A stretch of DNA of 64,000 bases from Escherichia coli (GTDB lineage Bacteria > Pseudomonadota > Gammaproteobacteria > Enterobacterales > Enterobacteriaceae): the NCBI RefSeq assembly GCF_030013205.1, contig NZ_CP122649.1; one strand, 5' to 3'. Position 1 is the first letter of the stretch; every line of letters begins with the position of its first letter. The position numbers are program-made. Positions 45,301 to 48,300 of the stretch are shown one piece after another.

Positions 45301-48300
45301 GACGCAGGGCACGCTGATCCGCAAGCTATGCACCTACACCGCGCCGAACCCCACGCGGCGCGCGGTGTTCGAGTTCGACAAGCTCATCCGCAGCATCTAC
45401 ACGCTGCGCTACCTGCGCGATCCGCAACTGGAGCGCAACGTTCACCGCTCACAGAACCGCATCGAGTCCTATCACCAGCTACGCTCAACCATCGCCCAGG
45501 TCGGCGGCAAGAAGGAATTGACCGGGCGCACCGACATCGAAATTGAGATCAGCAACCAGTGCGCCAGGCTGATCGCCAACGCGGTCATCTTCTACAACTC
45601 GGCCATCCTCTCGCGGCTGCTGATGAAGTACGAGGCGAGCGGCAACGCCAAGGCGCACGCTCTCCTGACCCAGATATCGCCGGCGGCCTGGCGGCACATC
45701 CTGCTGAACGGGCATTACACCTTCCAGAGCGACGGCAAGATGATCGACCTGGATGCGCTCGTGGCGGGGCTGGAGCTGGGATGACGGAAATTTCGGCGGT
45801 TCTGGCTTAGAACCCCAACTTAGATGAGGAAATCATCCAGTGTTTTACCGGCTTCAAGTTGTTCGGCCAGTGCTTTAGGGGTACGCCCCTGGCCAGTCCA
45901 GGTTTTCGTTTCACCATTAACATCAGTGTATTTATATTTCGCAGGGCGCGGTTCGCGAACTTTTTTAGGTGCTCCGGACTTTGCAGAGAAAGAACTCAGT
46001 AACTCTTCAGGGTCAATTCCATCTTCAAGCATTAATTGACGCAGGGATTCAATCTTCTCCAGACGCGCTTTCAGCTCAGCTTCTTTTGAAGATTCTTCCT
46101 GACGTCGTTCTTCAACAACAACGCTTAATTTTTCCAGCAGTTCTTCAAGGATCTCTAACGGCAGTTCACGGCCCTGCGCACGAAGAGTACGAATGTTGTT
46201 TAATGATTTGAGTGCTTCGGACATATGACCTCACTAAGAGTAATAAATAAAATCAATAGAATACTTTGCGATATTACACTCTTTTATTATTTTGAGCCAG
46301 CTAGACGCGTAAGATTTTCTGGGCGCATGATATCAATCATTGGTACCTAAAGACATTAACCACCCCGCGTATGGAAACAAATGCATTATCACTTGCCAGT
46401 TCCTCTGTAGTGCCAACTCCGCAAGATTAGATAAAATCGCCGTCTGTCTCATGCGATTATTACTTTCGGTTACTGGAGAGACCTTTTAATATTGATTTTC
46501 TTCCTCTTGATTTCTTAGTTGTTTGTTCTTTTCGTTAATATGGAAAGGGTCGTATGTGTTGGTATTATATGCGTTCTTAACGTTTGCTGCCCACTGTTCA
46601 ATGCGGAGCATCATTGCATATGTTGCTGCGGCATCAAGATCCAGTTGTTCAGAGTGTTCAGGGAGCAGAATTTTACAATATTCCAGTTCATGAGCCACAG
46701 CTCCGAGCCGTTCATAAAGTGAAGATAGTTGCGTTATGGAATCATCAGTGCGGTTCATGAATAGCGCCGACTTCCAATAATATATTGAGCAAGTTTGATG
46801 TTAAGACATACCATGTTGCTTGATAGTTGGCGCATCATACGGGATTCGCTACGAATTAAATAGGATTCAAGTAGTCCAGAATATTCCCCTGACGTTACAA
46901 CCGTCAACTGGGCAATGTGATTATTTAATTTGCTTGCCCCTGCCAGGATATCATCCTCCGTCGCCTCGATATAAACGGGGGAGGCAGCGATAACATAATC
47001 ATCGAAAGGTCTTGCTGCCATCAATGTCTCAATAGATTTCGCCGTCCTTTCTTTCCCGAATGTATTTGTTAATTCCCGCCACCATTGTCGGTGACTGAAC
47101 GGTAAATCATGAAAGGTGGCTTCATAAGCGTCCACGAGGTCACGACTATTCAAAAAACCCAACCCGGCCGAGATCACCCACAACTCCAGGTTCTCAGTTG
47201 TCCGTAATATCTCTTTTGCCGTTGACCAGTGATTACCGGCATAGAGCGACAGGGCCGGTACCGGTGAAGCACTTTGCGACCGTTTAATCGTTGCTGCCCA
47301 GCTGGACATTGCCTCTTCTGGTGTCTGTCCAGACCGGATACTCAGTTCTGGCATGGAGCCGCACTGGCTGTGCTTACCTTTGGTACAGGACGTTATTAGG
47401 TGTGTAATTCGCGACGCCGCCATTTTGTAGCCCTCAGCCAAATGTGTGTAATCACTGTCTAACTATCGTAACAGCCCCTCATCCGCCATAACGACAAAGA
47501 GGAAGCCCTAAACGTAAACGACTACCCCATTATACATTTAGTCATGCCTTTACTAATAACTAGTTACCAAAATAAACACCCCAGATGTGACACCGTCACG
47601 TTTTTCGGCTTTATTTAGTTCATTTTGTGTACTATGGGATTTAATTCGGGGTAAATCCCATCGTACACATAGCCCCCCTCATAGTGTAATTGCGGATAAA
47701 AACCCTATTAATCAGTCATATAGCTCAATGGTTGTGCATTCAGGGAATGCGATCGCCACTTAACGGGTTGCGGGTTGTTGGTCACCCGACATCTGTGTGC
47801 TAATCTTTTTCATCTTTAGTCATTAGTAAAGGCGTTACTATAAATGACGCTACGAGAATTTTTTTAACTAGAGAGGTGGATAGGCCAGTGAAAATCTCTC
47901 AGCCAAAACAGTGGGAAAAGGATCGTGAAATGAGCATGAATTCGCAGCCGGAACTGAAGTTGAGTACCCGTACCGAACAACTCGCCAGTAGTCGTGATGC
48001 CGCTATGCAAAAATTTCTGGACGGCATGACGCTGATTGCCGAAGCCTCAGCAATTTGCGGGTTTTCACTGTTTAACAGCAAAATTATGGCCCCTAATGCT
48101 TTTGGCCTTCCTGCGTCCCTGGCCGCAAGCATCGAGGAAGGGCGACAGCAAATAGACCGTAAGACATGGAACAATCTTTTTGAAGAAACGGGTATTGACC
48201 GATTCTGGAATCACAACCAGCGGGCGGAGTTCCGTGAGTCTCTCCGGAACGCTCCGCCAATTGCGTCGTTAACCGTAATCCGCAGTACATTGCGCCAGGC

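Follow-up and report, generated by a model that had tools for sequence, protein, structure and literature searches.

The window analysed here, a stretch of 64,000 nucleotides, makes up the final 64 kb of an R27-like IncHI1 plasmid, plasmid unnamed2 of Escherichia coli ETEC4079 (NZ_CP122645.1; 216.7 kb). It matches positions 152725-216724 of that record, from which it is two homopolymer-length differences apart. The strain comes from pig faeces in Belgium, and a literature search for papers on strain ETEC4079 found none. The window carries a gene for an H-NS homologue (hns) and one for a protein of the Hha/YmoA family (hha), and a resistance transposon has been inserted immediately downstream of the former. 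The features referred to below are as follows.

15755..15967, plus strand: hha, R27 ORF182-type gene of the Hha/YmoA family; 70 aa, intact
28073..28096, minus strand: displaced native hns terminator (predicted), a 10-bp stem and tetraloop, AAAAGCCACU-UUUC-AGUGGCUUUU, then CUUAUU
28125..28129, no strand: left target-site duplication AACTT, 5 bp
28130..45816, no strand: Tn3-family composite resistance transposon, 17,687 bp, which parts hns from its native 3' flank
28130..28167, plus strand: left 38-bp terminal inverted repeat, GGGGTTCTAAGCCGGAACCGCCGAAAATTCCGTCAGCC, which opens GGGGTTCTAAGCC
30156-30975, 38969-39788 and 42724-43543: the IS26 copies in the transposon, with their ends located
43544..45784, plus strand: truncated Tn3-family transposase gene (tnpA), cut by the IS26 at 42724-43543 and convergent with hns; Pfam DDE_Tnp_Tn3, E 3.1e-112
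45779..45816, minus strand: right 38-bp terminal inverted repeat, GGGGTTCTAAGCCAGAACCGCCGAAATTTCCGTCATCC on the minus strand
45817..45821, no strand: right target-site duplication AACTT, 5 bp, the last two bases of which lie within the hns stop codon
45820..46224, minus strand: hns, encoding the R27-type plasmid H-NS (Sfh/HppH clade, by sequence); 134 aa, intact, stop codon at 45820-45822, annotated as WP_001287388.1 in NZ_CP122645.1
46225..46485, minus strand: intergenic region upstream of hns, with the presumed promoter and 5' UTR and with a GAGG ribosome-binding site ~7 nt before the ATG; GC 0.39, as read from the sequence

The sequence-only reading of this DNA had reported that homologues of both H-NS and Hha are encoded on the plasmid and that the H-NS is full length, and both statements hold: the two open reading frames are intact, and their Pfam, NCBIfam and PDB matches are strong and well outside what chance would give. 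The 134-aa H-NS contains the N-terminal coiled-coil domain for dimerisation and oligomerisation (Pfam PF22470, Histone_HNS_N; residues 1-78, profile 1-78 of 79, E 4.5e-25) and a complete C-terminal DNA-binding domain (PF00816, Histone_HNS; residues 95-134, profile 1-38 of 38, E 1.6e-16). Among structures in the PDB, the protein matches residues 1-83 of Salmonella H-NS (3NR7, E 4.9e-24) and the C-terminal domain of StpA (2LRX, E 4.2e-20). The minor-groove motif TWTGQGRTP (Q/RGR) at residues 108-116 is invariant relative to chromosomal H-NS, StpA, the R27 protein and the Shigella copy, and the same is true of R12 and R15. A pseudogene, or a truncation or disruption of the DNA-binding domain, which the same reading had named as the finding that would speak against it, is ruled out by the full-length reading frame, the complete domains and the unchanged motif.

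The plasmid H-NS is 62% identical both to chromosomal H-NS and to StpA when compared with reference sequences, with which the PDB fragments agree; with the plasmid proteins of R27 and Shigella, its identity is 99%. Its NCBIfam scores fall short of the equivalog cut-offs for StpA (176 vs 202 bits) and for H-NS (170 vs 211 bits). These scores, with the 62% identity to each, rule out that it is an orthologue of StpA or of chromosomal H-NS, and they fit a separate plasmid clade. HppH is a plasmid-only clade holding R27 H-NS/Sfh-type proteins (Fitzgerald et al. 2020, PMC7544231), and the IncHI1 synteny together with near-identity to Sfh and R27 H-NS indicates by sequence that the protein belongs to this HppH/Sfh clade of IncH plasmids. 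It is one residue apart from R27 H-NS (T128K; T128 here and K128 in R27), T128 being the common, pHCM1-type allele, and two residues apart from the copy on the Shigella flexneri R27-like plasmid (E3G and S78P). At the DNA level, identity over a 684-bp hns region reaches 100% with pHCM1 of S. Typhi CT18, 99.9% with R27 and 99.6% with the Shigella flexneri 2a R27-like plasmid. The region is present at an identity of at least 99% in 181 of the 195 plasmids having a match, and the allele WP_001287388.1 is carried by most IncHI1 plasmids.

The upstream side of the gene is unaltered, with 100% identity between positions 45817-46500 and the corresponding DNA of pHCM1 and further IncHI1 plasmids. A simple consensus scan for the hns promoter returned no minus-strand site within 46225-46485; its sole minus-strand promoter-like match, at 46593-46564, falls inside the upstream ORF. 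A search for structured RNAs and known sRNAs near hns gave no Rfam match at E <= 1 across 45000-47500.

The plasmid Hha consists of a single domain (Pfam PF05321, HHA; residues 10-65, profile 1-56 of 57, E 2.1e-19), and its PDB matches are to Hha (1JW2, 4ICG) and YmoA (2K5S), at E-values of about 1e-15 to 2e-15. It is identical to R27 Hha (WP_001324690.1) and 51% identical to E. coli Hha. The counterparts of E. coli Hha D48, D22 and E25 are D45, D19 and E22, and all three are conserved. D22 and E25 of Hha and R12 of H-NS are residues that we take to have roles in the structures of Hha/H-NS complexes. D48 of E. coli Hha is described in PMC4519777 as important for binding the N-terminal domain of H-NS. 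The residues expected to make the Hha-H-NS contact thus appear from the alignments to be kept in both plasmid proteins.

The gene order common to the window and R27 comprises a tus-like gene, a tyrosine recombinase gene, hha, the IS1-flanked RepFIA replicon, HNH genes, hns, a 90-aa ORF and a DUF6884 gene. We consider it highly probable (about 0.9) that hns and hha of the window are backbone genes of an R27-like IncHI1 plasmid and the counterparts of R27 ORF164 and ORF182, respectively. The distance of 30 kb between the two genes, to which attention had been drawn beforehand, was measured as 29,852 nt. This spacing is secondary and not a designed feature, because 17.7 kb of the gap is the inserted transposon; the gap would be ~12.2 kb without it, and is 10.6 kb in R27. 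The R27-type H-NS/Hha module is already known, and its presence here is textbook IncHI1 biology rather than a discovery.

The functions of such a pair have been characterised by experiments on the near-identical R27 H-NS and Sfh, which bear out the earlier statement that such pairs silence AT-rich acquired DNA and reduce fitness cost. R27 encodes hns (ORF164) and hha (ORF182) as modulators of thermosensitive transfer (PMC2686267). In a Salmonella hns mutant, H-NS(R27) brings back the silencing chiefly of horizontally acquired, AT-rich genes and has little effect on core genes, proV and rcsA among them; there is overlap between its targets and the genes that require Hha together with chromosomal H-NS (PMC2686267). 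The Sfh protein of pSf-R27 assembles into heteromers with both H-NS and StpA and acts as a "stealth" factor, which prevents disturbance of fitness and expression on entry of the plasmid (PMC2686267, PMC7544231, PMC7074111). Sfh in native pSf-R27 does not restore the repression of hilD, unlike the cloned gene (PMC7544231), and this difference indicates that the effects depend on context. Preferential binding and silencing of AT-rich or curved DNA have been established experimentally for R27 H-NS (PMC2686267) and Sfh (PMC7074111), and by analogy we infer the same activity for the H-NS of the window.

In the proposed mechanism, the plasmid H-NS would dimerise and oligomerise through its N-terminal domain with itself, chromosomal H-NS and StpA, and would bind AT-rich or curved DNA through the Q/RGR-type motif of its C-terminal domain. 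Hha, which has no DNA-binding domain, would dock on the N-terminal domain of H-NS and make silencing stronger. The pair would keep AT-rich plasmid genes and other horizontally acquired genes quiet, would spare the host H-NS pool, which is the "stealth" effect expected to lower the fitness cost, and would repress conjugation genes at 37 °C.

Three regions of the plasmid had been put forward as AT-rich islets on which the pair might act. The description stands for 55-57 kb (GC 0.35-0.36) and for the msr(E)-mph(E) segment at 41-43 kb (0.36-0.39), while the stretch around lnu(G) is only mildly AT-rich (0.42-0.44). The islet at 55-57 kb is occupied by three backbone genes that R27 has as well: one of the PLD family, one hypothetical and one with DUF3800. 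On composition, these regions are plausible candidate targets of H-NS.

The main job of the pair may instead be the temperature control of conjugation, with trhR/trhY and the tra operons repressed at 37 °C and the silencing of AT-rich cargo a minor matter. We regard this as possible, if rather improbable. The role of R27 hns and hha in transfer thermoregulation is reported as demonstrated (Forns 2005, cited in PMC2686267; PMC7366339), with repression of R27 conjugation by plasmid H-NS and Hha at high temperature (Forns 2005, as summarised in PMC2686267), and the expression of R27 hha is stronger at 37 °C (PMC7366339). The msr(E)-mph(E) segment, moreover, is a recent acquisition bounded by IS26 and has no history of co-evolution with the silencer. 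However, conjugation control and cargo silencing can go together, the binding of H-NS(R27) and Sfh to AT-rich DNA is broad (PMC2686267, PMC7074111), and the GC content of the islets, 0.35-0.39, is typical of H-NS targets. A backbone pair that would act on both AT-rich DNA and transfer is the reading that we prefer.

Downstream, the hns 3' end is joined directly to a transposon end, as had been recognised from the sequence: the inverted repeat stops at 45816, leaving 3 nt before the stop codon. Position 45817, at which the earlier annotation of the locus started, is the first base beyond the transposon. The hallmarks of the Tn3 family are inverted repeats of ~38 bp starting with GGGG, a 5-bp target-site duplication and a DDE transposase of Tn3 type. 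The left and right repeats of the present element are identical at 35 of 38 positions, AACTT is found on both sides, and once 28130-45816 and one copy of AACTT are taken out, 258 nt match the uninterrupted pYPE10-190k-tetX4 site exactly. Because the repeats agree, the target is duplicated and the empty site is exactly restored, the insertion 3 nt beyond the hns stop is the work of one ordinary Tn3-family transposition. The stop codon was kept through the target duplication, and the hns reading frame, ribosome-binding site and upstream region were undisturbed by the insertion.

The GC content is 0.54 in the transposon and 0.45 elsewhere in the window. Inside the transposon lie genes of the cupin and chlorite-dismutase families, floR, msr(E)-mph(E), an IS1133-strA-strB segment, three copies of IS26 and the truncated tnpA. 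The element has been remodelled since insertion. Its transposase is truncated by IS26 and no resolvase is left, which means that it is no longer autonomous; an intact tnpA of 3,030 bp is present in a P. aeruginosa copy. A 943-aa ORF at 42953-45784 in the mechanical ORF list was rejected as an artefact, in which antisense IS26 is read through into the truncated tnpA. Related ends in intact form are found on plasmids of Cupriavidus, Delftia, Acidovorax, Pseudomonas and Aeromonas. A literature search by inverted-repeat sequence for a name of the transposon found no paper containing the repeat, and PGAP labels related copies no more closely than "Tn3 family transposase".

The insertion has separated hns from its own 3' flank, which now lies at 28072-28124. 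In uninterrupted IncHI1 plasmids such as pYPE10-190k-tetX4, the hns coding strand continues after the stop codon with GTTGAAATTAAAATCGCGAACAGCTCAGTTC, followed by a hairpin with a 10-bp stem, AAAAGCCACT-TTTC-AGTGGCTTTT, and then CTTATT. This hairpin begins 32 nt past the hns stop and is seen in the MFE and centroid structures alike on RNA folding, and it is predicted to be a typical intrinsic terminator on the hns strand. It is now 17.7 kb from hns. The first 100 nt of the new 3' flank fold, on the hns strand, no better than shuffled sequence (z = 0.01). A consensus scan of the transposon for a replacement terminator on the hns strand gave one weak site only, at 43769-43753, ~2 kb downstream, although the negatives of this simple scan are soft since it missed the native hairpin too. 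The hns transcript may extend into antisense tnpA, and the loss of the terminator could change the length, stability or dosage of the hns mRNA.

It follows as a second alternative that an intact protein may be made in an altered amount: the hns transcript would enter the inverted repeat and antisense tnpA, hns would be exposed to convergent transcription from the side of the IS26 and truncated tnpA, and the dosage of plasmid H-NS, with it silencing and the thermoregulation of transfer, would be unlike that of R27. Besides the displaced hairpin (28073-28096), the unstructured new flank and the distance to the weak terminator-like site, this is favoured by the uncoupling of sfh mRNA and protein levels across growth phases, which points to post-transcriptional control (review, PMC7074111). 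We nevertheless consider it unlikely. From the upstream region through the ribosome-binding site to the coding sequence, hns is 100% identical to its counterparts in other IncHI1 plasmids, many bacterial genes tolerate the loss of a terminator, and Rho-dependent termination is possible in the GC-rich antisense tnpA region. There is also no sign of a promoter for the truncated tnpA, a scan of 42600-45000 for sites driving it towards hns having found no promoter-like sequence.

The junction between hns and the inverted repeat occurs in one of the 72,556 plasmids of PLSDB, namely the source plasmid itself. The opposite junction, in which the native flank is followed by AACTT and the left repeat, is common to the Salmonella plasmid pSA20030575.1 (401/401 nt). 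A search of the whole 224,430 bp of pSA20030575.1 found no hns (best tblastn E-value 0.53), nor was the right transposon end found anywhere on that plasmid. A fragment of its DUF6884 gene (window 47367-47879) adjoins an IS26, and hha is kept. The Salmonella plasmid is a natural derivative of the same insertion lineage, without hns and with hha, and the loss of hns most likely occurred by IS26-mediated rearrangement. That this sister plasmid persists indicates that hns is not essential for plasmid maintenance.

The native region downstream of hns is kept in 107 IncHI1 records. In the 190-kb tet(X4) lineage, an IS1B-bounded resistance region starts ~539 bp downstream of hns, and p6EVA-1 has an IS1B and mer genes ~505 bp downstream. 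The flank has been used repeatedly, with counts that are confounded by clonal expansion. One could speculate that loss of the terminator and 3' UTR shifted H-NS dosage, through read-through into antisense tnpA or convergent transcription, as the first step of a decay ending in the hns loss of pSA20030575.1, and that the AT-rich flank downstream of hns is a preferred docking site for IncHI1 resistance modules, three independent breakpoints being located within ~540 bp. We hold this combined scenario to be quite doubtful. That hns is already a decaying, non-functional remnant beside a resistance island is suggested by its abutting the transposon end directly and by the absence of hns from the sister plasmid with the same insertion, but is extremely improbable given the full-length reading frame, the two complete Pfam domains, the stop codon preserved through target duplication and an amino acid sequence identical to WP_001287388.1, the allele of most IncHI1 plasmids.

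The reading of hns and hha as the backbone pair of an R27-like plasmid places a multiresistance plasmid of a pig-associated E. coli in the R27 family, with the silencing module intact. Such a pair goes some way to account for the tolerance that new hosts show towards IncHI1 resistance plasmids, large and AT-rich as these are, and for plasmid transfer that takes place chiefly at low temperature. The features peculiar to this plasmid, which are the transposon next to the hns stop, the moved terminator and a sister plasmid that lacks hns, are of low general interest and modest practical value. They do provide ready test material, namely a clean insertion at the hns stop, a relocated terminator and an hns-less, hha-bearing sister, for the share of plasmid H-NS in the silencing of resistance cargo and in fitness cost.

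Comparison with known systems reveals that the closest relatives of the window hns are R27 H-NS (ORF164) and Sfh of pSf-R27, which likewise have 134 aa, a 90-aa ORF and a DUF6884 gene upstream, and DNA that is 99.6-100% identical. The window differs from the R27 gene in its 3' flank, which is replaced by the transposon end 3 nt after the stop codon. R27 Hha (ORF182) is the same 70-aa protein in the same place, by the tyrosine recombinase gene and the IS1-flanked RepFIA replicon; there is no difference in the protein, and the distance to hns is 29.9 kb in the window versus 10.6 kb in R27. Chromosomal H-NS and StpA of E. coli and Salmonella share the two-domain architecture, R12 and TWTGQGRTP with the plasmid H-NS, in which the linker is divergent. 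Plasmid H-NS(R27) is, unlike chromosomal H-NS, selective for horizontally acquired DNA without needing Hha (PMC2686267). Acr2 of IncA/C plasmids, HppX/Sfx of IncX plasmids and Pmr of pCAR1, which belong to other clades and plasmid groups and are likened to the H-NS of the window by description, are also plasmid-borne homologues of xenogeneic silencers that limit fitness cost and repress transfer.

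The 3′ flank of the plasmid hns gene is occupied in the window by a composite transposon, which is inserted 3 nt after the stop codon. The features of this region are as follows.

28130-45816, Tn3-family composite resistance transposon of 17,687 bp, bounded by inverted repeats and a target duplication
45820-46224, minus strand, hns
46486-46758, minus strand, hypothetical ORF of 90 aa, directly upstream of hns
46755-47309 as annotated, minus strand, DUF6884 gene, for which the mechanical ORF reaches 47441

A 5-bp duplication, AACTT, borders the transposon on either side, and the 38-bp inverted repeats of the element are identical at 35 of 38 positions. 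The cargo comprises floR, IS1133-strA-strB, msr(E)-mph(E), cupin and chlorite-dismutase-family genes, and three copies of IS26, one of which cuts tnpA short; no resolvase is left within the element. Intact ends related to those of the transposon are found on plasmids of Burkholderiales, Pseudomonas and Aeromonas. A 943-aa ORF in the mechanical list (42953-45784, plus strand) was rejected as a gene because its open frame consists of antisense IS26 (42724-43543) fused to the truncated Tn3-family tnpA.

Comparison of the flank regions (5380-6010 of comparison locus L002, 1269-2527 of L013, and 27590-28129 of the window) places other resistance regions close to hns. In the tet(X4)-carrying 190-kb IncHI1 plasmids, an IS1B-bounded resistance region begins ~539 bp downstream of hns, and in p6EVA-1, also IncHI1, an IS1B-bounded region with mer genes begins ~505 bp downstream. 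Resistance islands of IncHI1 lineages thus repeatedly have a boundary in the hns 3′ flank, in a count that includes clonal relatives. Within the 3′-terminal coding sequence of hns, the plus strand (antisense to the gene) bears a terminator-like hairpin and T-run at 45888-45902, which could halt transcription arriving from the transposon side; it is a single match, within chance expectation (mean of 2.4 in shuffled sequences).

The left transposon junction is common to the window plasmid and its sister IncHI1 plasmid pSA20030575.1 (NZ_CP030182.1; loci L009, L005, L008, L010 and L011). In the latter, the right transposon end has been lost together with hns and the 90-aa ORF, and only a minor part of the DUF6884 gene is left (compare window 43544-47366); IS26 adjoins the breakpoint. 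Since hha is still present, pSA20030575.1 represents a natural hns-minus, hha-plus derivative.

The lowest GC content of the window (0.35-0.36, at 55000-57300) belongs to plasmid backbone rather than cargo. The stretch carries a phospholipase-D-family gene, a small hypothetical gene and a DUF3800 gene, which together with the neighbouring thermonuclease, DNA cytosine methyltransferase and DUF1173 genes could form a nuclease/defence-like cluster.

Relative to NZ_CP122645.1 as held in PLSDB, the window shows two single-base length differences, in a G-run (7 versus 8) and in an A-run, at ~3058 and ~21970, and annotated coordinates between them are consequently shifted by 1. These homopolymer differences are probably assembly or version differences.

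The 90-aa ORF and the DUF6884 gene overlap by 4 bp and are both oriented as hns, immediately upstream of it. In pSA20030575.1 the pair disappears along with hns. The arrangement of 90-aa ORF, DUF6884 gene and hns seen in the window is conserved in R27 and in a Shigella plasmid.
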